Assembly: GCA_040326155.1 (NCBI GenBank) | Contig: JBEQLE010000059.1 | Span: forward strand, 4,457-28,558 | Origin: Leptospirales bacterium | Lineage (GTDB): Bacteria > Spirochaetota > Leptospiria > Turneriellales > JAOUFE01 | Length of the DNA stretch: 24,102 nucleotides | Reading direction: 5' to 3' | Shown here: positions 973 to 20,122 of the stretch, piece after piece | Layout: every line of letters begins with the position of its first letter | How positions within the stretch are numbered: the first letter of the stretch is position 1 | Program-made: the position numbers and the translations under genes | Notes under the pieces: generated by a model | What the model was told of the DNA's origin: nothing | Database searches by the model: none | Seen by the model: the letters and a program-made list of their open reading frames with translations, nothing else

Positions 973-1644
973 TTACCAGTAATCCCACGGGTTGAAGCGC
1001 TCCAGGCGGAAGTCCTTGTGTTTAGGAGCCTCGGTGGGTAAAACAACACCCGCGTATAATTTAATGCCCAGCCAATAGAACGCTGCTTCATGAAAAGCCG
1101 AATGGCTTCGAGCCTGGTTCTGCAATCGAACATTACCCCTGGTACGAAACGGAAACCATACCAGCTTAGCCGAAGGAAGCCGCGATCGCGGGCGCAATGG
1201 CTGAACCCCTGACGGCAACGGCCCGGACTTCCCGAAACAAATCATTTCCAGTTTATCTAAATTCGATTCGAGGGCCAGGCGCACCAGATGAGTCATTGTG
1301 CAATACATCAAACCCGCAGTCATTCTAATGAAGAATTCATCTTCGCCATATAAGCAAAGCTTATGGCGGTGCATTTCTTCGACCCCCAGATGTTCTTTTG
1401 CGAGCGCCTGCAACTTCTTGAATTTTGGTTTTTCCCAGAAACGCTGGCAATAGCCGATATTTTTTCGTGCATCGGTCCGCTTGATCAGACGAAACAGACA
1501 ATATCGTACCACCCACGAATAAGTCTTATCTTTATGCAATGCGATGCGGACGATTCTCTTCCAGATTTCGCTTTTCAATCGAACTTCCAGAATATTGTCA
1601 GGTTGGATAGGCAGTTGTTCATACGGCGTATTATTGTTGATCAT
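973..1644 (-). CDS. Tandem ribbon-helix-helix-like protein, paralogue 1 (possibly DUF1564-like); alternative start at 1680
   Basis: Two strand-helix-helix patterns: LEVRLKSEIWKRIVRIALHKDKTYSWVVRYCL and HKLCLYGEDEFFIRMTAGLMYCTMTHLVRLAL. Clear paralogy to 4984..5544 supports that it is coding. Confidence 0.65.
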   Translation of the reverse strand: MINNNTPYEQLPIQPDNILEVRLKSEIWKRIVRIALHKDKTYSWVVRYCLFRLIKRTDARKNIGYCQRFWEKPKFKKLQALAKEHLGVEEMHRHKLCLYGEDEFFIRMTAGLMYCTMTHLVRLALESNLDKLEMICFGKSGPLPSGVQPLRPRSRLPSAKLVWFPFRTRGNVRLQNQARSHSAFHEAAFYWLGIKLYAGVVLPTEAPKHKDFRLERFNPWDYW

Positions 1645-1651
1645 ACCAGTG

Positions 1652-1680
1652 TAATAGGCAAAAGTGCTGTTTTTTTTCAT
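1652..1680 (-). promoter_or_regulatory. Putative sigma28-like promoter, ATGAAA-N15-GCCTATTA, 7 nt before the ATG at 1644
   Basis: Resembles the sigma28 consensus TAAA-N15-GCCGATAA. The same motif and spacing recur at 4948..4976 (+) and 23658..23686 (-). Confidence 0.45.
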
Positions 1681-4859: not shown

Positions 4860-4893
4860 TTATGCTCCTTAAATGTTATCACTGAATTATGCT

Positions 4894-4922
4894 ATTGTTC
4901 AGGCATTTAGGCATTATGTCAA
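4894..4922 (-). promoter_or_regulatory. Putative sigma70 promoter of the lipoprotein gene
   Basis: TTGACA-N17-AACAAT on the minus strand, about 35 nt upstream of the ATG at 4859. Confidence 0.4.
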
Positions 4923-4947
4923 TAAAAATGGAAAAAACAGACAAAAA

Positions 4948-4976
4948 ATGAAAAAATTCCCAACTTTTTCCTATTA
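4948..4976 (+). promoter_or_regulatory. Putative sigma28-like promoter, ATGAAA-N15-TCCTATTA, 7 nt before the ATG at 4984
   Basis: 4948..4986 matches 1680..1642 (-) at 31 of 39 nt, including third codon positions. Confidence 0.45.
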
Positions 4977-4983
4977 CACTTAT

Positions 4984-5544
4984 ATGAAGAATGTAACTAC
5001 GTATCGAAAACTGAAGATTCCCATTGACAATGTTTTAGAAATTCGGCTGCCTCCTTTGTCCTGGAATAAAGTAAAATGGGTGGCAATCTGTACATTCAGA
5101 ACCCATTCCTGGGTTGTCCGATATGCTGTTTTTCGGATGATTAAACGAAACGGGCAATTTCATCCGGATGGCGAAAATGCGGGGTTGCGCTCTGCTAAAA
5201 TTGCAAAGTTAAATGATCTGGTGCGAGGCGAACGAGCCAATAGTCAAAAGAAACATAGACATCGACTTTGTTTATACGGCAAGGATGAGTTGTTTATTCG
5301 AATTGCTGCTGCGAAAATGGGATGTACGATGTCTCATCTAGTTCGTCTGGCGCTGGCGATGTATCTGGATGATTTGGTGAGCAAGTTTTATATTGGGCGC
5401 TCCCGGGGCCGTAATGGCAGGTTCAGTGGTCCGGCGTGGAAGTGCCTGGGGATTAAGATTTACCGTGGTGTGAGATTCCACACCACGGTTATAAGACACC
5501 AGCATTTCGAGTTCATCTACTACAAACCCGGCGATTACTGGTAA
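4984..5544 (+). CDS. Tandem ribbon-helix-helix-like protein, paralogue 2; alternative start at 4948
   Basis: Shares DN(V/I)LE(I/V)RL, SWVVRY, H(R/K)LCLYG.DE.FIR, CTM.HLVRLAL, LGIK.Y.GV and the terminal P.DYW with 973..1644. Confidence 0.65.
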   Translation: MKNVTTYRKLKIPIDNVLEIRLPPLSWNKVKWVAICTFRTHSWVVRYAVFRMIKRNGQFHPDGENAGLRSAKIAKLNDLVRGERANSQKKHRHRLCLYGKDELFIRIAAAKMGCTMSHLVRLALAMYLDDLVSKFYIGRSRGRNGRFSGPAWKCLGIKIYRGVRFHTTVIRHQHFEFIYYKPGDYW

Positions 5545-8810: not shown

Positions 8811-10013
8811 ATGAAAAAACAAAATAAAATATATGCTGAGGTGTTAGAACCTTCTGCGATGGAACAATTTGAAAATGCAATGGCGCAACCATTTTCTGTA
8901 AAAGGGGCTTTAATGGCCGATGCACACACGGGTTACTCCATGCCAATCGGTGGTGTTGTAGCCACAAAAGATGCAATTGTGCCAGCGTGGGTTGGTTATG
9001 ATATTGGATGTGGAATGTGCGCCGTACAACTTTCTGTTAATAAAGATGGATTTGATTTTCAAGAAATTTACGATCAAATTTACAGACAAATTCCGGTCGG
9101 GTTTCATCACCACAGCACTAAAAAAACAGTTCCAGATTTGCCACATACCGATGTAGTTGCCAGGGGTTTAAAAAAGGGAGAGTATCAAATTGGAACGCTT
9201 GGCGGCGGTAACCACTTTATTGAAATTGGAGAGGGAAAATCTGGCAGCCTCTGGATTGTAATTCATTCCGGCTCAAGAAATTTAGGACACTTTGTAGCTT
9301 CGTATTATATGAAATTGGCATATATTGAATCTATTGATACGACTGAAATCGGACAAGTTTTTGACGATAAAAAAAATAGTACAATTTTCAAAGAAAAGAA
9401 TCCAGTTGCCTATGCAAAAGCCCGGGAAGAATATATTCAAAAGGAAGTCGAAAAAAGTCATGCCAAATCCAATTTTGAAGGACATTTTCATTTTGATGTA
9501 AATAACGAAAATGGAAAGAATTATATTCTGGATATGCAATATTGTCTAGAGTATGCGCTTCAAAATAGAAAAGCGATGATAGACAAAGTCAAACAGATTA
9601 TGGGTGTAGATAAGGAATTAACATTTATAAACCGAAACCATAACCATGCAGAGTTTGACGGTAAATTCTGGATTCACAGAAAAGGTGCTACTCACGCAGA
9701 AAAAGAGATGTTGGGAGTTATACCAGGCAATATGCGTGATGGTTCTTTTATTGTAAAAGGCAAAGGAAGTGACGACTCTTTGTGTTCAAGTTCGCATGGT
9801 GCCGGAAGAGTTCTTGGGAGAAAACAGGCAAAACGCACACTGTCTATGGACGATTTTAAAGAACAAATGCAGGGAAAATATGCAAAGGTTGTCGATGATA
9901 CTCTGGATGAAGCTCCAAACGCATACAAGAATATTTATGAGGTTATGGAATTACAAAAAGAGTTGGTTGAAATAATTGACCATGTAAAACCCATTGTTAA
10001 TATTAAAGGTTAG
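8811..10013 (+). CDS. rtcB: RNA ligase RtcB family protein
   Basis: All main motifs present: DAHTGYSMPIGGV, VGYDIGCGM, GTLGGGNHFIE, HSGSR, HNH, HRKGAT, IPGNM, SHGAGR and DEAPNAYK. Confidence 0.96.
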   Translation: MKKQNKIYAEVLEPSAMEQFENAMAQPFSVKGALMADAHTGYSMPIGGVVATKDAIVPAWVGYDIGCGMCAVQLSVNKDGFDFQEIYDQIYRQIPVGFHHHSTKKTVPDLPHTDVVARGLKKGEYQIGTLGGGNHFIEIGEGKSGSLWIVIHSGSRNLGHFVASYYMKLAYIESIDTTEIGQVFDDKKNSTIFKEKNPVAYAKAREEYIQKEVEKSHAKSNFEGHFHFDVNNENGKNYILDMQYCLEYALQNRKAMIDKVKQIMGVDKELTFINRNHNHAEFDGKFWIHRKGATHAEKEMLGVIPGNMRDGSFIVKGKGSDDSLCSSSHGAGRVLGRKQAKRTLSMDDFKEQMQGKYAKVVDDTLDEAPNAYKNIYEVMELQKELVEIIDHVKPIVNIKG

Positions 10014-10055
10014 CGCTGAAATAACTTTCCCCGGATTCAATTTTTATAAAATAAT

Positions 10056-10625
10056 TTATACCAGGACCGGCGTGCGAGAATTATCGGGGGACTTTTCGAG
10101 GGAGGGTTGGGGATTAATCTGGTTCATGAAATCTCGCAGATCTTCTTTCGTTTTTTTAGATAGAAGGTTTTCGAGCTCTATTATTCCTTCGTCGCTGATG
10201 GCAAAGGGCATATAGTGGTATAGTACCTGTCTCCCTTCGCACTGGGCGGCCAGCTGGTACTCTTTGCAATCGCGGATGGGTTTTGCGGTGCAAAGACAAT
10301 ATTCGGTCCATTTATCGAATTTATTCTGAAATTTTTCGGTAAAGGTTTTCTGGCGCAGATTAAAGTCTACTCGGTTGTCAAAATAGTTTTCAAAATTTTT
10401 ACGTGATTCAATGGAGTATAATTCGCCAATGCCTTTTTGATAGCATTCAAGGCAGATGGCAAAATCCATGAGAATATCGTTTTGTGAAATTGCTTTTTCA
10501 ATAATATACTGGATTCCCTCATCGAGTAAAAATCGGTCGCATAAAGGGCAGTGTGTGTGCGGTTCGCCGGTTGCGGCGTTGTATAATATCTCGGGGATAT
10601 CAGAGTAGTGTTCACAAATTTCCAT
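10056..10625 (-). CDS. Hypothetical Cys-rich protein (possible Zn binding)
   Basis: 189-aa ORF from MEICEHY with CPLC, CLEC and CLC...C. No family recognised. Confidence 0.7.
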   Translation of the reverse strand: MEICEHYSDIPEILYNAATGEPHTHCPLCDRFLLDEGIQYIIEKAISQNDILMDFAICLECYQKGIGELYSIESRKNFENYFDNRVDFNLRQKTFTEKFQNKFDKWTEYCLCTAKPIRDCKEYQLAAQCEGRQVLYHYMPFAISDEGIIELENLLSKKTKEDLRDFMNQINPQPSLEKSPDNSRTPVLV

Positions 10626-10745
10626 AATAAATGTCGTCCGGACGGAGTCCTTGTTTTTTGATATCGTTTTTAGTGATAAGTACGAGGTCAACGATTAATC
10701 TTTATGTAAGCCTTTAAAACAGTGATGATTACAATATTAATATGC

Positions 10746-10974
10746 TTCACCGGGAATTCAATTTGCTTCGCTTTGATGGGTAAGCAGAAATATCACATTG
10801 AAAAACAGGAATTGACTTCCGGTGAATCCTGCATGGGCAACCCAACCCAATGTCATGCTTTTCGTATGCTGCACTCCTGCTTGCCAGGTTATTCACCGTT
10901 ACGCACTATAATAATGGCGGAAGCAAGGGGTTATGTGTTATAATAGTGGCATTATTGCCTGTTTCCCATAACAA
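10746..10974. other. Structured intergenic segment, candidate ncRNA or regulatory leader
   Basis: Several nested or alternative inverted repeats: 10746-10762/10811-10826, 10820-10831/10885-10898 and 10803-10809/10968-10974. No Rfam family recognised. Confidence 0.3.
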
Positions 10975-11092
10975 ACACAATAATTTCTTAAAATAACTTG
11001 ACATTATGCGCAATCATTTTATATGTGTTTTATCTCGCCAATAATTTTGGTGATAAATACGGATTATAATAAAATAGAGTGAGGTTGTTTCA

Positions 11093-14000
11093 ATGGAATA
11101 TTTAAAGTATGTAAGCCGGATAACGGCATTTGTTTTAGTTGTTTTGCCGGGGGCAATATTTGGGGCGGTGAATTCAAACGGTTCATTCTCTCATAGTGTA
11201 AAAATTGAGATACCGGAAGGAAGAAATAAAATGCACCCTTCTGTGAGTTTAGTGTATAATTCTAATGGCAGTAATGGACTGGCTGGTATTGGGTGGTCGA
11301 TTAGTGGCATACCCGCCATCAGTCGTCAAGTGGGAAATAACGGCTTACAGTATCACGGTAATGGAACGTATTTTGGAATTCAAGGTGAACTTGTCGATGT
11401 TTCTGGGGACCAAACCGTTTTTCACAGCAAAGAAGAATCTTATTATAAATATGAACCAATATATGGAACTTGTGGATTAGAACCAAAGGAACCATGTGGA
11501 TGGAAAGTAACAGCTCCAAATGGATATATTATGTATTTTGGTCAAGATGTAGACGGTAAGACCGGGAATTCCAGTATACTGGCAGATAACGGACTTGGAT
11601 ATATAAAATGGGGAATGAGAATGGTCGTTGACTTACATGGTAACGCCGTTGTCTATGAATATGATAACTCAGACGGTTTACTTCTTCCTGAAAGAATCTT
11701 ATACACAATCGGCCAGAGCACATCACGACTTCGTTCCGTTACTTTTCAGTACGAACCTCGAAACGATATAGAAAATCGATTTTTAAGTGGTGCTTACCAA
11801 ACCATGTCTAAGAGATTGAAGTCAGTTCAAGTCTCGAGTAATGTATATTGTGTTTTGGGATTTTGTACAAGTGGCGATTTAATACGTAAATATAATATTC
11901 ATTATAACTACAGCTCTTCTACAGGCAGAAGTGCTGTAACAAGAATTCAAGAGACAGGAAAAGATGGTGTTACATTAAAGCCCGCTCAAGATTTTATATG
12001 GTCTCACTCTACTGTGGATATTTCTGAAGCGAACACAAGAAACCTGGCCGGTGAATACTCTAATTCTAAAGCTTCAGATATAAACGGTGATGGGTTGACA
12101 GATTTTATACGCTATCATGATACAGGAACTCAGACAAATATTGCGTATAGTATAACAAGTACAAATGGCTCAGAAAATCAGTCCGAGAATTTTGCTTTTA
12201 GTTTAACTGGCTGGGAACTTAAGATTGCAGACATGAATGGGGACGGCAAAGGCGACCTTATTTTCGCAAAAGGAACTTCAGTTAAATATGCTTTATGGAA
12301 TGATATTTCGTGGGGAACCCTGGTTGACGCTCGTGTTGGAGATGAAAACGCCGTCGGATGGCAAATAAACGCAAGCGATTTAAACAAAGATGGTTTAACT
12401 GATCTGTTATATTATTACAATTATTATCCGGATCATGAAACGGCTTGCACGACATGCCAAAATAAAACTTCTATCCAGGTTCAAAAAAATACAGGGCAGG
12501 GTTTTGAAACTGCGCTGACTGTTTTTGATGATGCAACCCTTAATGCACAATGGAATTTTAGTGTTGTAAACTTAAACGAAGATTATGACGCCGACATAGT
12601 TTTATTTAATATGATAGATGGTATAAATGTAAAATATCTGCTCAGCCAAAACGGAGGTTTTGCGCCAATTGCGCAAGCATACCAGGTTTCGGACCCGGAT
12701 AATTATTGGCAGGTAATTCCGGCTGATTATAATGGGGATGGCAAGACAGACCTTATCTATATGAAACAAGATTATAATCCTGATACTAAAGACAATCAAA
12801 TTACATTTGGATTGCAAATAGACAATGGAGCAGGGTTTAATAGTTTTAACGAGATTAAAATTTTAGCAAAAAACGGATATTATACGCTATATCCTTTAGA
12901 TATTAACTCAGACCGGCGAGCCGATTTGTTAATAAAGGACAATAAAGACGACAAATGTGATATCGACTATACTTTATTAGAAAATCGTGCAAGTGGATTT
13001 ACTCCCGAACAAAACTATAAAATCCAAGAAAGCCTGGGAGGTGATTGTAGTTTATCTATAAAATTAGGTGAGTTTAATGGAGATGGGACAATTGATATTA
13101 TTCACACTGTATCTGATGGAACAAATGAAGTAAAGATGTTATCTGGTGCAGGTACACAGGCAATTGCAAGTGATAAAATATTTGAAATTAGAAATAATAT
13201 TGGTAGCATACAAAAAGTTTACTATGAAACATTGGTAGAGCATGCCGGGGCTATTGATTTGCAAACGAATCAATGTGGCGGCGCAAGTGGTGTCGGTTAT
13301 TTCGCACCATGTGGTATAGCGTATAAGAATCCAGGATTTTTGGTGAACAAGATCTCGGTTTCCGATGGCCGGGAAAATGAATTTTTCGTCAGTTTTCTTT
13401 ATTTCAACCAGCGGTTTAAACCGGGCAGGGGAAGTCAGGGTAAAGCTTTGGGATTTCAAACCTTTACTACAATTGATGAATTCGTAGGTAGTTATAATGT
13501 AAAAAATTTCCGACAAGATTCAAGTTATGCAAAAATGTTCGATTATGAAGAAGAGTATAATGCGAACAATCAATTAATGAGTCGTAAGTCATTTATTTAT
13601 TCACAAGATCATTCTACTATTTTCCAGGGTACTGAAAAAACGATCATGGAAAAAGAAGTATTTAAATTGTATGAAGCAGGACAATTTTCTTTAAGCAATA
13701 CAAAAGTATACAACTACAACGATTATGGGCAGGCTGTTTCCGCTATCGATATTGCTACAGGGACAGAAACAGTAGAGTTCGAATATAAATATGAAATGGA
13801 TCTAAATTTATGGATTCTTGATCGTAAAATTGAAGAAAAGCAAATAGTACAGGGTACCGTTTTAAAATGGGATAAATTTACTTATGCAAACCACAACATG
13901 GTTTTAGAAGAACGGTATTTGAATACAACTGATTCATTTTTGTCGACAACATTTGGTTATGACGAATATGGGAATATAATTCAAAAAACAGATACAAATG

Positions 14001-17000
14001 GCAATTCTACAAGTGTTAAATATGACACTGAATATTTTACACTACCTTTCCAGGAAGTCAATGCTCTGGGGCACACCATTACTTATGAATATGATCCATT
14101 GTATATTGCGCCTTTGTCTTTAACGGATAATAATGGAAATGTTACGACAAGTGAATATGACAGCTTTTATCGACTTGTAAAGTTAATCTATCCTGGCGGT
14201 CAGTATTCTAAAGCGGTCGATTATATGCCAAATGAAGGAAATCCAAATGAACAATATATTGAAGTTCGATATACAGATAGTTCACCGGAAGGTTTTAGTT
14301 ATGTGCGTCACTATTATGACGGACTTACCAGAATTTACAATAAAGCTGCCAAGGGCGTAATCTTAGAAGAAAATGGAAATATTGTACATCGTGACGTTGT
14401 CACTGAATACGAGTTTTTTGGTCGGGGTAACGAAGATTATAATAAGATTTCTTTCCCTTACGTTCAAGGGCTTCAGGAACCGGCTTATAAAACATTCCAG
14501 TATGACTCTTATGGAAGAATGACAAAAATCGTAAGTCCGAACGGGACCTCTTCGCGTATAGTTTACAAAAACAACGAATTGGAACAATACGATGCGAACA
14601 ATAATATGGGTCGGGTAGTTGTTGATGCACGGGGCAGGGATATAGTTCGAGAAAACTATAAAGGATCCACTTTACTTTCCAGTATAGAGTATACATATCA
14701 GTCTTTAAAGCAAATTACAAAAGAAGCTGATGGGCATATTTCTACGGTTACATATGATACCCTGGAACGGACGAATAAAATTGAAGATGATACGACCGGA
14801 ATATGGAGATTTAAGCAAGATGCCAATGGTAATTTAATTGAGCAAATGGACCCGATGGGTCAAAAAACATACAAGCAGTATGACGCTTTAAATCGCATGG
14901 TACGTAAATCGTATAGCGGCAATTCTCACGACGACGACGATGATGATGAATCTGATTCAGATGATGAACATGAAGACCATGCGGACGACGACGACGATGA
15001 TCACTTTGCATTTACCAATAACACAATTTTCGGCAACCCTCATTTTGGACGTAACAAATCTACATATTATGTGTATGATGATGTTACTCAAGCCAACTCC
15101 ATTGGTAAATTAAGTCATGTATATGACGCCTCCGGAAAAACAAGTTACAGTTATGACGTACGCGGCAATTTGAATAACATGATAAAAGAAATTGGTACTC
15201 AACAATTTGCTTTTTCAGCCAAATACAATGGAGAAAAAAAAGTAACTCAGGTTACTTATCCAGATGGTTCCACTATAGGAAATATCTATAGCAATGCAGG
15301 TTATTTACGCCAGGTTCGTTGGTATGATGCAAAAGAGCAAGGTGATGGACACCCTGTCGTAACTTATGCTGGTCCAGATAAGGACTATAAATTGGTACGA
15401 ATCTTAGGAAACGGCGGTAAAGATATTATCACTTACAATCCGCTGACTTTAAAACCGGATAGTGTTCAAACCATATTAAAAGATACAGATGGAGAGAACA
15501 TTGTCGTGCGTGATATTGACTACGAAATGGACGGCAACGGTAACATGTTATCGATTAAAGATAATTTGAACCTTGAGTCTTCGCAGTTCTTTCAGTACGA
15601 TGGTTTGGATCGTGTTGTTGGCGCACAAGGCGCATACGGAATAAAGAACTACCAGTATTCACCAGGTGGCAATTTATTAGTTAAAGGTCAGAAACAACTT
15701 TTCTATGAAGATAAACTTCATCCACAAAGTGTTACTTCTGATAGTCTGGGCAATGCGTACAATTATGATGAAAATGGAAGTCTGGTAAAACATAATGATC
15801 GTATTTTTAAATACAACAAAGATCGCCAGATGGTTCAAGTTAATCGGAAAAAAGAAGGTAAAATTGCCGAGTTTATTTATGGCCATAACGAAAACCGGGC
15901 AGTGAAAAAAACAAAAAACGGTAGCTTAATTTACTATTTTCACTTTTTATCGAATACAGAGCCATTATTTGAAATTCAAGTTTTTGATAAAGGTCACAAG
16001 AAAAAAAGCCACGGTAATGGTAATGGTAACGGTTATGACCAGGAAGACGAGTATGAGAAGCCGGGTATAATGCATACCAACTATGTATATGGAATGTATA
16101 ATGAATTGGTCGCTCAGGTGACAAAAAGTTCAACGAGCTTATTAGCTTTAAGTAAAACTTCCGATGCAGTGGCTGTCGAAATGGTAAATGCAAATGGCCC
16201 GGTCGGTTGGACTCAAAAAGCATTCATGATTTCGGCGATATGGTTTACTGACATTGGGAATATAAAAAATTCGGTGTTGGCATTTTTCTTTTTAGCGATT
16301 ACCATGTTTTACATTGTTTTTACTTACCAGTCCATAGCAAAACGAGCTGCCCGTCAATTGGGTCTAGCTAGAAAAATATACTATTTCAGTACGCCGATTA
16401 TTTTTACTGCCTTTTTCTGGTTTTATGGAGCCGGCTGCGGCGTCATCAATGAGGCAGGCGCTACAGATGCAGAATATTGGGAAACGATACCGTCCCATAT
16501 TCCGGAGGATATCAGCGATGTCAGCGAGCCTTCCGGGAATTCGGAAGTGGCTGAGCATGGAGGTTTTCCTGTGCTGGGTGCATACTTTTTTCATCCCGAT
16601 CATCTTGGCAGCGTTCGATTTGTCAGTGATGCCAGTGGTAGTTTGTTGACGCATATAAACTATACTCCCTATGGTGAAATCGACCGGGAGCAATCTGCCG
16701 GTCCCGATATTTTACGCCACAAATACACCCACCAGGAGGAAGATCGGGAAACCGGACTCTACAATTACAATGCCAGAATGTATGACTCAAATTCTGGAAG
16801 ATTTACGAGCGCCGACACGGAACTTCCTGGAGAAGGGAAAATGTCTCAAGGATTTAACAGGTATATGTATGCTATGGGCAATCCGGTAAAATATAGCGAC
16901 CCAACCGGGCATTGCTTTGCAGCGGGAGATACTGACGTTGGCGGTTCTTGTTCAACCGTTCCTGGTCATAACTATACTGGACCTACGAAAAGACAGGCCA

Positions 17001-17560
17001 ATAGTATGGGGACTTGCGTCTCGGCTATTGATTGTATCTCTCGCGGCCATGATAATGCAAATGCTGCTCTTTTTCCGGGTTTAAATCCTGGAAAACCGCT
17101 GGGCCAGGGTACTGGGGCTAACATATCAATGTTAATGAATAATATAACGGCTGATGTATTGTGGATTGTGGGGGGAGCGTTGGCAATCACACCACTTGGT
17201 TTTGTTTATGATGTTGTCGCCGGGGCAAATTGGTTTAGTGAAAATACACCTCAACCGGCTTCTGGGGATATCGTAGGTTGGATTGCTTATGGTATTGCGG
17301 GGGTTCTTGTTACAGCTGTATATGCTATTGCCGCTTTTGTATACGATACAGTCATTTTTGCCCTGGGACGGGTACTGTTTGCAATCAATATAGCTTTCTC
17401 AGCCGTTCTACTGGCTATGAATGTTATAGTCGGTTTTATCGACGGTATAGGTAAATTCTTTACGGACCCGCTAGCAACAATCAATGCCTTTGTTGATGAA
17501 GTGGACGATTTCTTTACCGGTATTGGTGACGCCATAGAAGACTTTTTCACTGGCTGGTGA
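11093..17560 (+). CDS. Secreted SpvB/FG-GAP/YD-repeat Rhs protein (fused TcB-TcC-like) with PLA2-like C-terminal cargo
   Basis: Sec-like signal, then SpvB-like NGSFSHSVKIEIPEG...SLVYNS...GIGWS. Multiple D.NGDG..D FG-GAP repeats and YD repeats. Rhs core motifs HPDHLGS, YTPYGE, YTHQEEDRETGLYNYNARMYD and NRYMYAMGNPVKYSDPTG. GAGG RBS upstream. Confidence 0.93.
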   Translation: MEYLKYVSRITAFVLVVLPGAIFGAVNSNGSFSHSVKIEIPEGRNKMHPSVSLVYNSNGSNGLAGIGWSISGIPAISRQVGNNGLQYHGNGTYFGIQGELVDVSGDQTVFHSKEESYYKYEPIYGTCGLEPKEPCGWKVTAPNGYIMYFGQDVDGKTGNSSILADNGLGYIKWGMRMVVDLHGNAVVYEYDNSDGLLLPERILYTIGQSTSRLRSVTFQYEPRNDIENRFLSGAYQTMSKRLKSVQVSSNVYCVLGFCTSGDLIRKYNIHYNYSSSTGRSAVTRIQETGKDGVTLKPAQDFIWSHSTVDISEANTRNLAGEYSNSKASDINGDGLTDFIRYHDTGTQTNIAYSITSTNGSENQSENFAFSLTGWELKIADMNGDGKGDLIFAKGTSVKYALWNDISWGTLVDARVGDENAVGWQINASDLNKDGLTDLLYYYNYYPDHETACTTCQNKTSIQVQKNTGQGFETALTVFDDATLNAQWNFSVVNLNEDYDADIVLFNMIDGINVKYLLSQNGGFAPIAQAYQVSDPDNYWQVIPADYNGDGKTDLIYMKQDYNPDTKDNQITFGLQIDNGAGFNSFNEIKILAKNGYYTLYPLDINSDRRADLLIKDNKDDKCDIDYTLLENRASGFTPEQNYKIQESLGGDCSLSIKLGEFNGDGTIDIIHTVSDGTNEVKMLSGAGTQAIASDKIFEIRNNIGSIQKVYYETLVEHAGAIDLQTNQCGGASGVGYFAPCGIAYKNPGFLVNKISVSDGRENEFFVSFLYFNQRFKPGRGSQGKALGFQTFTTIDEFVGSYNVKNFRQDSSYAKMFDYEEEYNANNQLMSRKSFIYSQDHSTIFQGTEKTIMEKEVFKLYEAGQFSLSNTKVYNYNDYGQAVSAIDIATGTETVEFEYKYEMDLNLWILDRKIEEKQIVQGTVLKWDKFTYANHNMVLEERYLNTTDSFLSTTFGYDEYGNIIQKTDTNGNSTSVKYDTEYFTLPFQEVNALGHTITYEYDPLYIAPLSLTDNNGNVTTSEYDSFYRLVKLIYPGGQYSKAVDYMPNEGNPNEQYIEVRYTDSSPEGFSYVRHYYDGLTRIYNKAAKGVILEENGNIVHRDVVTEYEFFGRGNEDYNKISFPYVQGLQEPAYKTFQYDSYGRMTKIVSPNGTSSRIVYKNNELEQYDANNNMGRVVVDARGRDIVRENYKGSTLLSSIEYTYQSLKQITKEADGHISTVTYDTLERTNKIEDDTTGIWRFKQDANGNLIEQMDPMGQKTYKQYDALNRMVRKSYSGNSHDDDDDDESDSDDEHEDHADDDDDDHFAFTNNTIFGNPHFGRNKSTYYVYDDVTQANSIGKLSHVYDASGKTSYSYDVRGNLNNMIKEIGTQQFAFSAKYNGEKKVTQVTYPDGSTIGNIYSNAGYLRQVRWYDAKEQGDGHPVVTYAGPDKDYKLVRILGNGGKDIITYNPLTLKPDSVQTILKDTDGENIVVRDIDYEMDGNGNMLSIKDNLNLESSQFFQYDGLDRVVGAQGAYGIKNYQYSPGGNLLVKGQKQLFYEDKLHPQSVTSDSLGNAYNYDENGSLVKHNDRIFKYNKDRQMVQVNRKKEGKIAEFIYGHNENRAVKKTKNGSLIYYFHFLSNTEPLFEIQVFDKGHKKKSHGNGNGNGYDQEDEYEKPGIMHTNYVYGMYNELVAQVTKSSTSLLALSKTSDAVAVEMVNANGPVGWTQKAFMISAIWFTDIGNIKNSVLAFFFLAITMFYIVFTYQSIAKRAARQLGLARKIYYFSTPIIFTAFFWFYGAGCGVINEAGATDAEYWETIPSHIPEDISDVSEPSGNSEVAEHGGFPVLGAYFFHPDHLGSVRFVSDASGSLLTHINYTPYGEIDREQSAGPDILRHKYTHQEEDRETGLYNYNARMYDSNSGRFTSADTELPGEGKMSQGFNRYMYAMGNPVKYSDPTGHCFAAGDTDVGGSCSTVPGHNYTGPTKRQANSMGTCVSAIDCISRGHDNANAALFPGLNPGKPLGQGTGANISMLMNNITADVLWIVGGALAITPLGFVYDVVAGANWFSENTPQPASGDIVGWIAYGIAGVLVTAVYAIAAFVYDTVIFALGRVLFAINIAFSAVLLAMNVIVGFIDGIGKFFTDPLATINAFVDEVDDFFTGIGDAIEDFFTGW

Positions 17561-17583
17561 GAATCAGCGTTTATAATCGGTCT

Positions 17584-17679
17584 ATGGTAAAAAGATATAA
17601 AGTCTTATTAGCACTTTTCTCTTTCATGGTTCCCCTCTTTATGGCAACGGCTGTAGAGAAGGGGACCCATGAGCATTAG
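17584..17679 (+). CDS. Possible 31-aa hydrophobic peptide (MVKRYKVLLALFSFMVPLFMATAVEKGTHEH)
   Basis: Small ORF between the Rhs and radical SAM genes. No clear RBS, and it overlaps a hairpin, so it may be spurious. Confidence 0.2.
   Translation: MVKRYKVLLALFSFMVPLFMATAVEKGTHEH
17624..17672 (+). other. Long RNA hairpin between the Rhs and radical SAM genes
   Basis: TCATGGTTCCCCTCTTTATGGC-AACG-GCTGTAGAGAAGGGGACCCATGA forms about 21 pairs including G-U. No immediate U-tract. Confidence 0.6.
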
Positions 17680-17719
17680 GTTTTACTGACGAACTATTAT
17701 TCGTTATTCTGGATCAACA

Positions 17720-18802
17720 ATGAAGTATGATTTACAATTTAAAGAACATCTGGAAGATCTTTACTTAAACAAAGCAAATTCTAATGCGTCTAATGTTTTT
17801 CTTGAGTTTGAATTAACCGGAAAATGTAGAAATAAATGTTTTTTTTGTGGTAACTTTTCGCAATCTCATGGTCCAGAGCTCAATTTTAAACAGTTAAAAA
17901 AGTTTATAAAAAAATTTTCTACTTATTATTTGCGTAAAGGAAAGCGGCCTATACTCTCTTTCTGCGGGGGGGACCCGGCGCTATATTCTTATTTTGACGA
18001 GCTGCTTTTATTTCTCGACAGATCGAAATTACCGTTTGTTATAAAAGGGAATCCTTCTACCATTGATGAAGACCATGTTTATCTACTGCAAAATCATGGC
18101 TGCATGGCTGTCAAGTTTACCTATCTCGGAGATAAAAAACTTCATAATGAAACACGGGGAAACGAGACGGTAGCAGATTTAATAGAAAAGACAAAGATGT
18201 TTCAATCTATGGAAATGCCGGTGTTGTGGAATTTGAGTGTTGGTAAATTTAACATGAATTCTATTGTAGAGTCGTTACCTTTTATACATGAAGCTCGACC
18301 GGACGCAATTATGATTGGGCGTCTGGCTAATATTGGAAAAATAAAGGATACAAAAGAGGAAAATCAAAACAACGAAATGACGGCTCCGGAATTTAAGAAA
18401 TTCTTAATGACGCTGTTAAATTATTACTATAAGAACTATGAAAATGGTTTTCATCTATCGTTTAAAGAAAAGTTATGGGTTCCACTACTTGCCGAGATGG
18501 GACTTCTGGACATAGAAAAATTAGATATTCCCCCCGAACACCTGGGCTGCGACGCTTACTGCCGTTCTTTTAATGTAAATAGCAGCGGAGATATCTCTTT
18601 ATGTGGGCTTTTATCTACAGATCAGCCTGCTGCGCTCAGCGAATTTGACATTGAAAAGGTATTAAAATTACGAACCCTTTCGATGAAAAACAATTCTTAT
18701 TGTCATGATTGCAAATACGGCCCGTACTGCCAGGGATGTCGCGCGATAGCATTGGCCAACACCGGGGATGTTTATGCAAAAGATCCTCATTGCTGGTTAT
18801 AG
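17720..18802 (+). CDS. Radical SAM protein with SPASM domain
   Basis: CRNKCFFC (CxxxCxxC) and GGDP. SPASM cysteines GC...GDISLC...CHDCKYGPYCQGCRAIA...GD...DPHCW. Confidence 0.92.
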   Translation: MKYDLQFKEHLEDLYLNKANSNASNVFLEFELTGKCRNKCFFCGNFSQSHGPELNFKQLKKFIKKFSTYYLRKGKRPILSFCGGDPALYSYFDELLLFLDRSKLPFVIKGNPSTIDEDHVYLLQNHGCMAVKFTYLGDKKLHNETRGNETVADLIEKTKMFQSMEMPVLWNLSVGKFNMNSIVESLPFIHEARPDAIMIGRLANIGKIKDTKEENQNNEMTAPEFKKFLMTLLNYYYKNYENGFHLSFKEKLWVPLLAEMGLLDIEKLDIPPEHLGCDAYCRSFNVNSSGDISLCGLLSTDQPAALSEFDIEKVLKLRTLSMKNNSYCHDCKYGPYCQGCRAIALANTGDVYAKDPHCWL

Positions 18803-18900
18803 ACTTTCTGTAATAAAGGTGATGGTGCTAATAATTTCCGGCTAAAATGAGTTTTACGGGTTGCCGTCGTGACTATGGTGTTTTATACGTCTTACTGACC

Positions 18901-19143
18901 ATGCAACGCAGACGAACTACATACAAAGCTCAGGCGCAGACCAGAGTAGCGAAACGTCCATTATTCGGGCTGGGTTCTTTTGATCGGGCAAATTACAAAT
19001 ATGGTGATTATCGTAAAAAAATCGACCCCGAGTTTCGTCCGTCATCGACTGGCCTGTTCTTGAAAACATTCAGGACAATTATGTCTTGCTCTATTTCTTT
19101 AGTTGTACTATTTGTTCCGTTTCGCAGCGTCGAGGGATTTTAG
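18901..19143 (+). CDS. Possible small basic protein with a hydrophobic C-terminus
   Basis: 80-aa ORF (MQRRRTTYK...SISLVVLFVPF...) fills the gap before the convergent TerB gene. No family recognised. Confidence 0.35.
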   Translation: MQRRRTTYKAQAQTRVAKRPLFGLGSFDRANYKYGDYRKKIDPEFRPSSTGLFLKTFRTIMSCSISLVVLFVPFRSVEGF

Positions 19144-19150
19144 GTAAACC

Positions 19151-20122
19151 TTACCGGGTTTTCAACTTCGCGTCAATAAAATCTTTATGGCTGAGTAATA
19201 AAGAGTGTGTGACGACTCTTAAATAGTTTTCTTCGTCAATATGAAACTCGTTGTCCGAACGAGCGATTACAAAAAGCTGCTCCAGAAAATCTTTTTTTTG
19301 CTCATAAGAACACGACTCAGTAATAATACGACTTAAATGGGTAAGTTCGTAATGGGTATCGGGAATTTTAACAATAGATTCTGTAATGTTCTTTGACTCG
19401 GTTTTGGAAGCTTCGCACTCTTTCTCGACCAATTTCTTCAACTCGGAAAGTTCTTTGGAATGAAACTCGTTATCGCAGTAAATAATTAACATGGCAATTC
19501 CAAGTTTTGCCGAGACAAGGGTTATATCGATTTTCGAATGTTCCTCCATGTTATTTTTTAAATGGGGGGCAATCGGGTTGGAGGCGTATTCTGCTGCGAG
19601 AGAATCAATACCGTACTCGTTTCCTTTGTCTTTTAACCCTTTTCTTATTCCACCCACGGCGCGGCTAAAATAAGAAATATCTGCATCATTCACCTGTTTT
19701 TTAATATAATTTAAAATCTCTTTTTCTTCGTCCTGAACGATATCGTCCGCTTCAACCATATCGTTAATGGCTTCCATAAATTCTGCTTTCTGGGCTTTCG
19801 ACTGAATTTCACTTACCAGCGTTTTGACCATATTTTCAATCTCTTGTTTGGATGGTTTCACCTGGCGGTAAAAATCAATCTCTCTCCACTCTGTTTCGGA
19901 GAGGCATCGGCCAAAGGCATAGTCCTTAATTAAATTCAGTTCAGATGTTTCGACATTGTCATCGAGGTAAGCTGTCGCCATCAAGAGTTTTAAAAACAGC
20001 ACCTGAGCGTCTCTGTCACTTGCATCTTGTACATATTCCGGGTTCTTGAAAATCTGCCCCAGTGGACTTTTCTTAGATGGTGAAATTAATTTTTGTACAC
20101 GGTCTTTAATACTTTGAAACAT
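19151..20122 (-). CDS. Tandem TerB-family protein
   Basis: Two TerB-like repeats: AYLDDNVETSELNLI / MVEADDIVQDEEKEIL and YCDNEFHSKELSEL / IARSDNEFHIDEENYLR. A GAGG RBS supports the start at 20122. Confidence 0.85.
   Translation of the reverse strand: MFQSIKDRVQKLISPSKKSPLGQIFKNPEYVQDASDRDAQVLFLKLLMATAYLDDNVETSELNLIKDYAFGRCLSETEWREIDFYRQVKPSKQEIENMVKTLVSEIQSKAQKAEFMEAINDMVEADDIVQDEEKEILNYIKKQVNDADISYFSRAVGGIRKGLKDKGNEYGIDSLAAEYASNPIAPHLKNNMEEHSKIDITLVSAKLGIAMLIIYCDNEFHSKELSELKKLVEKECEASKTESKNITESIVKIPDTHYELTHLSRIITESCSYEQKKDFLEQLFVIARSDNEFHIDEENYLRVVTHSLLLSHKDFIDAKLKTR

Follow-up and report, generated by a model that had tools for sequence, protein, structure and literature searches.

A Rhs cocoon gene followed by the gene for a radical SAM/SPASM enzyme of a clade associated with C-terminal tryptophan

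Among the SPASM radical SAM enzymes, the mycofactocin maturase MftC oxidatively decarboxylates the C-terminal Tyr of MftA and requires a separate leader-binding partner, MftB. Another, anSME, oxidises an internal Cys or Ser in the sulfatase motif of a full-size protein, in the cytoplasm and before Sec export. The SPASM maturases that cross-link Trp depend on a conserved Lys as the partner residue, and a leader-binding domain is present in most of them. On the toxin side, Tse5 is described in the abstract of PMC10684867 as a Rhs effector of type VI secretion that encloses a pore-forming C-terminal fragment. The locus presented here has parts of both kinds. It lies in a 24,102 nucleotide (nt) stretch of DNA from a Leptospirales bacterium (contig JBEQLE010000059.1 of assembly GCA_040326155.1), referred to as the window, where a gene for a Rhs-type protein is followed in the same orientation by a gene for a radical SAM/SPASM enzyme.

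The two genes are linked, the enzyme has intact catalytic motifs and belongs to a clade of its own, and the candidate substrates encoded beside members of this clade end in tryptophan (Trp). It is proposed that the enzyme modifies the tail of the Rhs protein; the Rhs protein would then be the substrate, its modification would take place before export, and its cargo would act on membranes.

Linked genes for a Rhs protein and a radical SAM enzyme

The preliminary description of this DNA gave two co-oriented genes 159 nt apart, and this is borne out by the list of open reading frames (ORFs) and the translations, with ORFs of 2155 and 360 amino acids (aa) on the forward strand (Table 1). The genome has exactly two copies of the enzyme gene, each 104 to 159 nt 3' of a Rhs gene of the same type and co-oriented with it. 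In the second pair, on contig C150, the enzyme is 63% identical to that of the window and its gene is 104 nt 3' of one for a 2136-aa Rhs protein, which shares 56.5% identity with the window Rhs over its full length, cargo included. Both types of pair are carried by metagenome contigs L008 and L009, from a related organism. Because the pair recurs at a second locus in the genome and on two metagenome contigs, the pairing is more than chance. Between the two organisms the synonymous divergence (dS) is ~0.24, and the ratio of nonsynonymous to synonymous divergence (dN/dS) is 0.12 to 0.13 for the enzymes and 0.29 to 0.32 for the cargo; both genes are therefore maintained. The expectation that homologues of the enzyme would have recurring Rhs partners holds for C150, L008, and L009, but not for clade members at 39 to 44% identity, which adjoin other genes.

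A total of 13 SpvB hits were found in the genome. The contigs concerned carry nine large YD-repeat ORFs with the core motif, seven of them complete at the C-terminus. Trp is the last residue of two of these seven paralogues, and in each case the enzyme gene comes next. The last residues of the remaining five are K, E, F, R, and Y, with no enzyme gene within 2.5 kb. The enzyme is linked specifically to the Trp-ending type of Rhs. The cargo domains of the paralogues are mutually unrelated, except for the C126/C150 pair. SpvB-type proteins are also encoded on contigs C117, C147, C77, C2, C83, C103, C125, C36, C139, and C95, most of them being 2100 to 2600 aa with SpvB, FG-GAP, and Rhs parts. On C103, a 112-aa ORF abuts the 3' end of the Rhs gene, which is a classic immunity-like position.

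The window Rhs protein starts with a signal-like hydrophobic segment (transmembrane-like at residues 6 to 28 in a hydropathy scan), followed by SpvB (PF03534, 53 bits), FG-GAP repeats (FG-GAP_3, PF13517, 64 bits), a YD/RHS shell (RHS_repeat, PF05593, 98 bits), the Rhs core, and the C-terminal cargo. RHS/YD repeats, a Rhs core, and a DPxG-type motif with a variable cargo after it, which together define a Rhs/YD-repeat cocoon toxin, were all found by profile and motif searches. Judged by its domains, it is a fused B-C type, with SpvB, an FG-GAP propeller, and a YD shell ahead of a core that ends in DPTGH (residues 1936 to 1940 by motif position). DPTGH is the presumed self-cleavage site, by analogy with what is established for Rhs and TcC proteins.

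Directly before the core is an insertion made up of two hydrophobic stretches with a basic loop between them, which is kept in the C150 paralogue and in P0015, a relative of the cargo described below. Similar segments are present in some other Rhs paralogues, and a membrane hairpin within a Rhs shell protein is unusual. An acidic run, DDDDDDESDSDDEHEDHADDDDDD, was recorded in the Rhs protein together with residues 1280 to 1303.

Four Cys and a long aliphatic tail had been ascribed to the cargo, and the sequence after DPTGH agrees with this. An N-terminal part of ~70 aa carries the four Cys, two of which are kept in the C150 paralogue, and is followed by a hydrophobic helical region. There was no Pfam match to the cargo at E<=5 and no PDB profile match better than E 0.26. 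An AlphaFold (AF2) model of the cargo made from six sequences has a mean predicted local distance difference test score (pLDDT) of 69.7, with the first 45 residues disordered and four long helices at 79-103, 106-123, 132-196, and 198-226 of 227. Foldseek found nothing in the PDB at E<=0.001. Its top rows were alpha-pore-forming toxins, which at E 0.7 to 1 are not evidence for such a fold, and neither a wide VIA-align search (best Z 7.3, all generic helical hairpins) nor a protein atlas search (best score 0.76) gave a specific fold match.

A search of 1.84 billion representatives returned four relatives of the cargo, these being the C150 paralogue, P0015, P0016, and P0017. All five cargo homologues have the motif [YF][TS]G..(C)..[IVL]D[CE][IM]S..HD (window 16970-17060, cargo residues ~20 to 50). 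The motif is reminiscent of the parvovirus-type phospholipase A2 signature, an assignment supported by neither the Pfam nor the PDB profile search. By comparison with Tse5, the cargo is probably a membrane-inserting toxin.

The enzyme and its clade

The enzyme had been called a complete radical SAM/SPASM protein, and it is: it has the CX3CX2C cluster motif, a Radical_SAM match above the cut-off (PF04055, 40.1 bits against 29.5), and the seven SPASM Cys for two auxiliary clusters, in the pattern C277-x12-G-x4-C295, C328-x2-C331-x5-C337-x2-C340, C358. The SPASM consensus is CX2CX5CX3C, from which the CX2CX5CX2C spacing seen here is one residue off, and the SPASM model TIGR04085 scores 25.9 bits, slightly below its cut-off of 27. 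The motifs previously quoted, GGDP, PFVIKGNP, LLQNHGC, KEKLWVPLLAEMG, and GCRAIALANTGDVYAKDPHCW, are all present in the translation.

A resemblance to ACGX-type maturases, also put forward before, is only partly upheld. The best NCBIfam match is indeed the ACGX maturase model TIGR04340, over the full length and at E 1.8e-30, but the score of 106.3 bits is far from the curated cut-off of 400. Other members of the clade score 93 to 148 bits, whereas true ACGX enzymes from gut-type genomes (L006, L007, and L017) score 460 to 540. A search at E<=0.1 for the ACGX-repeat peptide (TIGR04341) gave no match in the genome, the completeness of which is 94.7%, and no such ORF adjoins the enzyme gene; an ACGS/ACGT-repeat peptide precedes the true ACGX enzyme of L007. 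In a maximum-likelihood tree, 16 members of the enzyme clade and eight ACGX enzymes are split with 100/100 support. Given this separation and the low score, sequence comparison makes the clade the sister of the ACGX maturases and not part of them. It is referred to here as the Trp-tail clade.

Weaker NCBIfam matches are to AhbD (56 bits), the NirJ family (31 to 44 bits), and WgkB (37.5 bits). The MftC model TIGR03962 does not match the window enzyme at E<=0.01 and gives 25 to 39 bits with the clade enzymes of L003, L005, and L093, against a cut-off of 265; the anSME model TIGR03942 gives 21 bits with the window enzyme against a cut-off of 349. The radical SAM core is preceded by only ~28 residues, the cluster motif being from residue 36 and the TIGR04340 alignment from residue 29, so there is no room for a leader-binding domain. 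No PqqD-type domain was matched in the enzyme by Pfam or NCBIfam and no adjoining gene encodes one. In profile searches the solved relatives are SkfB (E 3.4e-13), anSME (4k37, E 6.3e-11, residues 34-341), and SuiB (E 3.4e-6). By this measure, the closest solved relatives are peptide- or protein-modifying SPASM/twitch enzymes.

The clade is rare, with 10 proteins found in a search of 5.8 billion. Scoring the best 5 to 10 first-look candidates per genome, no further members were found in 60 relatives, nor beyond this genome among 190 genomes of its class or in a 401-genome sample of its phylum. Members at 39 to 44% identity occur in Desulfobacterales-type genomes, in 5 of 401 genomes of the order and in 1 of 401 in a sample of the phylum of one such genome, G061 (G061 itself).

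The neighbours of these distant members are varied. In L003 there are three tandem-NHLP precursors (TIGR03793, 96 to 105 bits against 50.9), ending ..ISW, ..VLW, and ..VSW, with three NHLP export genes above cut-off. In L004 there is one NHLP precursor, ending ..MLW, and the four NHLP precursors of these two loci span 82 to 105 bits. The clade enzyme gene of L004 is broken. It is split over three frames with an in-frame TAG (9770-11337) in a complete-chromosome metagenome-assembled genome, and may be a pseudogene or reflect assembly errors. In L005, two Arg-rich peptides with a ..QIFGG double-glycine site, ending ..RGW and ..RSW, are encoded directly upstream, and C39-ABC, HlyD, and outer-membrane export genes are nearby. 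L094 and L095 each have two Nif11 precursors (TIGR03798, 50 to 54 bits against 32.3) ending ..CGW, adjoined by genes for YcaO/TfuA-like and ApyD-like B12 enzymes. In L093 (3072-10183) the neighbour is a LamG-domain protein of 1419 aa, the tail of which has P[WHY]VDL repeats and ends ..GGW. Two radical SAM genes come next, of which one is anSME/DynA/cyclophane-like and the other belongs to the Trp-tail clade. From its sequence, this LamG protein appears to be a further full-size protein whose tail is modified in the manner of a peptide.

A C-terminal Trp is present in 15 of 15 candidate substrates, from all 10 loci with flanking sequence (L010 is omitted, as the contig begins inside the enzyme gene). 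These fall into five unrelated classes: four Rhs proteins (FF[TKS]GW), four NHLP precursors, two peptides with double-glycine leaders, four Nif11 precursors, and the LamG protein. For comparison, 48 of 3029 ORFs of at least 150 aa in the genome end in Trp (1.6%), as do 6 of 74 ORFs in the six non-Rhs loci, four of these being the candidates themselves. In L003 and L005, no tailoring enzyme other than that of the clade accompanies the export genes. The cores are hydrophobic in L003 and Arg-rich in L005, with only the cleavage site and the final Trp in common, and no partner residue was found to be conserved across the five substrate classes.

In the tree, a single group (100/99 support) contains the Rhs-linked enzymes (window, P0004, P0005, C150, and P0007). 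The LamG-linked enzyme of L093 is sister to this group (91/85), and both are inside a 96/93 group with the enzymes linked to NHLP and double-glycine peptides. The Nif11-linked pair and three enzymes of unassigned context branch lower. Such branching is compatible with recruitment of a peptide maturase to large proteins at a later stage, although the tree is no proof of it.

Other Trp-ending proteins and peptide genes were noted in this genome. A multicopy family of ~190 to 235 aa, ending ..[DE]YW, is encoded in the window at 973-1680 (-) and 4873-5544 (+) and in about 20 further copies, and makes up a large share of the Trp-ending ORFs of the genome. It has no Pfam or NCBIfam match, and a repeat element may encode it. 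Nif11 leaders were looked for in the genome and none was found. A separate peptide cluster on contig C138 (16688-19192, -) has an NHLP-leader precursor of 151 aa, the core of which is repetitive and (N/A)-rich, beside a 678-aa B12-binding radical SAM gene. The precursor (18737-19192) was considered as a substrate for the window enzyme and rejected, as it ends ..VANTV and has its own B12 enzyme.

A proposed role for the enzyme and its alternatives

The enzyme was co-folded with the last 45 residues of the Rhs protein, S-adenosylmethionine, and three 4Fe-4S clusters, using alignments for both chains. The score was 0.72, compared with 0.02 for the best of three controls, a result that supports binding but does not show it; the mark used is reached by 116 of 157 solved complexes and by 2 of 215 mismatched pairs. 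The interface involves only tail residues 219 to 227, which are AIEDFFTGW, placed in the enzyme barrel. On the enzyme side, the contacts are with the ends of the barrel strands, the clade-specific N-terminal segment, and the region of the first SPASM Cys. It is proposed, from the sequences and this model, that the tail is the site of recognition or modification. As the N-terminal contexts of the candidates vary and a leader-binding domain is absent, the enzyme probably reads the tail itself, and the gene context and the co-fold make the cargo its most likely substrate.

The preferred reading, with a probability of about 0.6, is that the enzyme, which lacks a leader-binding domain, acts before export to modify the Trp-ending tail of the hydrophobic Rhs cargo. 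As part of this reading, the substrates of the clade would be defined by a free C-terminal Trp and the enzyme would have been recruited to B-C fusion Rhs proteins in this lineage. The Rhs protein would be made in the cytoplasm, where the enzyme barrel would bind the free ..DFFTGW-COOH end of the cargo and a 5'-deoxyadenosyl radical would modify the terminal Trp or a residue just before it. The modified protein would then be exported through Sec, the shell would close, and the core would cut after DPTGH. The outcome would be a 215-aa hydrophobic helical cargo, probably membrane-inserting, with its C-terminus modified and held inside the cocoon. The full picture, in which the cocoon delivers a membrane-active cargo matured by a radical SAM enzyme and the clade is keyed to a free C-terminal Trp without a leader, on anything from 20-residue cores to proteins of 1400 to 2150 aa, has a slightly less than even chance of being right.

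As to the chemistry, our guess, made by analogy, would be oxidative decarboxylation of the C-terminal Trp, because the target residue must be the last one. A cross-link from the Trp to the residue at -2 or -3 would come next and epimerisation third. Terminal decarboxylation would remove the charge at the end, which would suit a membrane-active tail.

The space between the two genes has no intact ORF of 60 aa or more. The preliminary description had noted the lack of an immunity ORF, which is true of the window but is partly the product of a ~600 bp deletion. The window is without 608 bp that L008 has (L008 1117-1724 by blastn), containing most of a 212-aa gene, so that the first 31 codons of it remain. 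No other copy was found in the genome by tblastn, and the C150/L009 type of pair never carries it. The L008 protein is beta-strand-rich, with a signal peptide and a weak DUF3575 match (E 0.013). It could be an outer-membrane or immunity-type accessory. A stable RNA hairpin of ~22 bp also lies between the genes. At the equivalent place in the C150 pair there is a ~22 bp hairpin (z -4.28), unrelated in sequence to that of the window, with a U-rich run after it. A search of 17300-19300 gave no sigma-70-like promoter on the forward strand, and the one terminator-like match in this region, at the Rhs stop codon, is weak. No small ORF 3' of the enzyme gene is kept in both the window and C150 pairs.

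Several observations weigh against modification of the Trp tail. P0015 is a 2140-aa Rhs protein of the same architecture, 41% identical overall, yet it ends ..GIFGC, and the fragment P0016 ends ..FFNGLF; P0017 ends ..LFDW. It may be that P0015 is the partner of the enzyme P0007, which would give a further instance of the pairing and an exception to the Trp rule within the Rhs subclade. The Rhs cases are one or two evolutionary events, not four. The L005 peptides were picked through a search for Trp-ending ORFs and so were not chosen blind, and the same search returned the L093 protein, which was likewise among the ORFs of at least 110 aa listed for its locus. The NHLP and Nif11 precursors, on the other hand, were confirmed by hidden Markov models independently of the last residue. 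The case for modification comes from gene context and the co-fold, and the three co-fold runs scored 0.00, 0.72, and 0.77. Agreement in contacts between the runs was at least 1%, the pLDDT of the partner was at least 32, and the fold of the tail itself is uncertain. The co-fold may also echo solved enzyme-peptide complexes. Modification of the tail would have to precede both Sec export and encapsulation. Finally, the hairpins between the genes in both pairs could terminate transcription. If they are leaky terminators, which is possible by analogy, this cuts both ways, as leaky terminators set a high ratio of precursor to enzyme in peptide operons.

A further point against the preferred reading is that contig C11 has two PAPASW-ending ORFs, with three radical SAM genes of the B12 type after them. 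The clade enzyme stands alongside ApyD-like B12 radical SAM genes and Trp-ending Nif11 precursors in L094 and L095, and the C11 B12 enzymes are distantly ApyD-like, at 23 to 27% identity to those of L094 and L095. It could thus be argued that the enzyme acts in trans on the small C11 peptides and that its place after the Rhs gene is incidental. This is unlikely: likeness between the B12 enzymes is at the level of the generic family, both copies of the enzyme gene are directly 3' of Rhs genes and not on C11, and elsewhere the enzyme adjoins its candidate substrate. The linkage to Rhs has survived divergence to 56-63% identity and recurs in L008 and L009, and only the Trp-ending Rhs paralogues carry the enzyme.

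The preliminary description went further in suggesting a hybrid system in which the Rhs shell serves as a giant leader or container. The specific linkage, seen in two pairs and in L008 and L009, and the cargo as likeliest substrate are retained from this suggestion. The giant leader is not needed, because with ~28 residues before the core the enzyme cannot hold a leader-binding domain and because the NHLP, Nif11, double-glycine, and LamG contexts, four others with unrelated N-terminal parts, share only the C-terminal Trp with the Rhs proteins. The related view, that the Rhs body is a leader and that the enzyme modifies the cargo widely, at its Cys or by epimerisation along the aliphatic tail, is rather improbable. 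It gains from the conserved pairing and from the hydrophobic nature of the cargo, as the NHLP cores beside clade members are hydrophobic too and proteusin-type hydrophobic cores are epimerised in NHLP systems. Yet only half of the cargo Cys are kept in the C150 paralogue, the co-fold contacts are restricted to the last nine residues, and a cytoplasmic Fe-S enzyme would not be able to reach the cargo within a closed and exported shell.

Equally poor odds attach to the two genes being functionally unrelated, the enzyme acting on a cofactor, a lipid, or some other non-protein substrate and the Trp endings being coincidental or serving, for example, as an export signal. The AhbD and NirJ matches of the enzyme are of the haem/cofactor type, and the hairpin does separate the genes. 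Against this, Trp ends all of the candidates, in five unrelated classes, where the background is 1.6 to 3%, and within the genome the enzyme accompanies 2 of 2 Trp-ending but 0 of 5 other Rhs paralogues. In the peptide-export clusters of L003 and L005 it is the sole tailoring gene, and the co-fold passes its controls. That the enzyme protects the producer, by inactivating the toxin tail in the cytoplasm in place of an immunity protein, is very improbable, even though no immunity gene is found 3' of the Rhs gene in the window and the 212-aa gene seen in L008 is lost. In the peptide loci the same clade provides the sole maturase of exported products, which fits activation rather than neutralisation. 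Furthermore, B-C type cocoon toxins generally need no immunity gene, since the cargo is enclosed, as is established for Tc toxins and outlined in PMC6868009.

Table 1. Positions of the Rhs gene, the enzyme gene, and their parts in the window
Feature	Position	Strand	Basis
Rhs-type protein, 2155 aa	11093..17560	+	ORF and translation; Pfam and NCBIfam matches
Hydrophobic insertion, Rhs residues ~1720-1815, directly before the Rhs core	16250..16537	+	Translation; hydropathy scan (segment 1724-1749)
Rhs-associated core domain, residues 1857-1940	16661..16912	+	TIGR03696, 69 bits against a cut-off of 32.5
C-terminal cargo, 215 aa, no known family	16913..17557	+	Sequence after DPTGH
Tail AIEDFFTGW, last nine Rhs residues, C-terminal Trp	17531..17557	+	FFxGW kept in window, C150, L008, and L009; co-fold interface
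31-codon remnant of a 212-aa signal-peptide gene	17584..17679	+	ORF list; intact counterpart in L008 (1024-1662); deletion junction ~17677-17699
Stable RNA hairpin between the genes	17623..17673	+	Hairpin z -2.9
Radical SAM/SPASM enzyme, 360 aa, C-terminal-Trp tail clade	17720..18802	+	Translation; Pfam; NCBIfam; alignment; tree
CX3CX2C radical SAM cluster motif, C36, C40, C43	17825..17848	+	Translation; nearly invariant in the enzyme alignment
SPASM region, C277, C295, C328, C331, C337, C340, C358	18548..18793	+	Invariant in the clade alignment (11 sequences)

Comparison with described systems

Searches of the literature found nothing that links Rhs or other polymorphic toxins to radical SAM enzymes and nothing on the Trp-tail clade. 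Rhs and Tc-type toxins have been studied as self-contained systems of shell, protease, and cargo, and editing of the cargo by a dedicated radical enzyme would be an additional step of maturation that has not been sought before. If the proposal is true, these genes would provide the first example of radical SAM maturation of the warhead of a polymorphic (Rhs/Tc-type) toxin and the first radical SAM clade to be keyed to a free C-terminal Trp, and a peptide-maturation enzyme would have been captured by a protein-toxin system. For radical SAM enzymology, it offers a small and well-defined clade with a simple testable substrate rule, a C-terminal Trp, on five unrelated scaffolds. The simplicity of the rule makes the unassigned chemistry approachable through short synthetic or fused tails. 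The enzyme would also join the few peptide-type maturases that have full-size proteins as substrates.

Of the enzymes, the ACGX maturases are the nearest family. Like the Trp-tail clade, they are compact at ~340 to 360 aa, lack a leader-binding domain, and have the full set of SPASM Cys, a C-terminal GCRxxA...KDPxCW motif, and a gene that adjoins that of the presumed substrate, the ACGX peptide in L007. The Trp-tail clade differs in having ~22 extra N-terminal residues and neighbours that end in Trp rather than in ACGX repeats. MftC is a SPASM enzyme for which the target is likewise aromatic and the very last residue, but its sequence likeness to the clade is weak, and the window substrate ends in Trp and can be a protein of 2155 aa. 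The second-best solved relative, anSME, is of similar size and has no leader-binding domain. Its target is an internal Cys or Ser, as opposed to the common C-terminal Trp of the window clade, yet by analogy it may serve as a precedent for a compact SPASM enzyme, free of a leader domain, that acts on a full-size protein before Sec export. The Trp-cross-linking maturases (SuiB/StrB, WgkB, and DarE) are SPASM enzymes that act on Trp in peptides, and differ in that the Trp-tail clade has no partner residue conserved across its five substrate classes.

The NHLP and Nif11 systems (TIGR03793 and TIGR03798, with exporters TIGR03794, TIGR03796, and TIGR03797) have precursors with double-glycine cleavage sites and C39-peptidase ABC exporters, and distant members of the clade are found inside such clusters in Desulfobacterales-type genomes. 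The window, in contrast, has no leader peptide, no nearby C39 exporter, and no double-glycine site, and its 'precursor' is the Rhs protein.

Among the toxins, Tse5 has a Rhs cocoon around a hydrophobic, membrane-targeting C-terminal fragment that is freed by self-cleavage, an arrangement predicted from sequence for the window protein. However, Tse5 is a type VI effector for which the abstract of PMC10684867 mentions no modifying enzyme, whereas the window Rhs has a signal peptide, SpvB, FG-GAP, and a linked radical SAM enzyme. The TcB-TcC cocoon of the Tc toxins, as outlined in PMC6868009, has the same order of SpvB, FG-GAP propeller, YD shell, core, and variable cargo; the hydrophobic insertion before the core and the radical SAM partner gene set the window Rhs apart from it. 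No match to the TcA-type translocator (PF18276) was found in the genome, nor in any of 14 control genomes. The Rhs cocoon and the SPASM maturase are known parts, and what is new is that they are linked, that a maturase clade is defined by C-terminal Trp, and that this clade is apparently used for peptides as well as for very large proteins.

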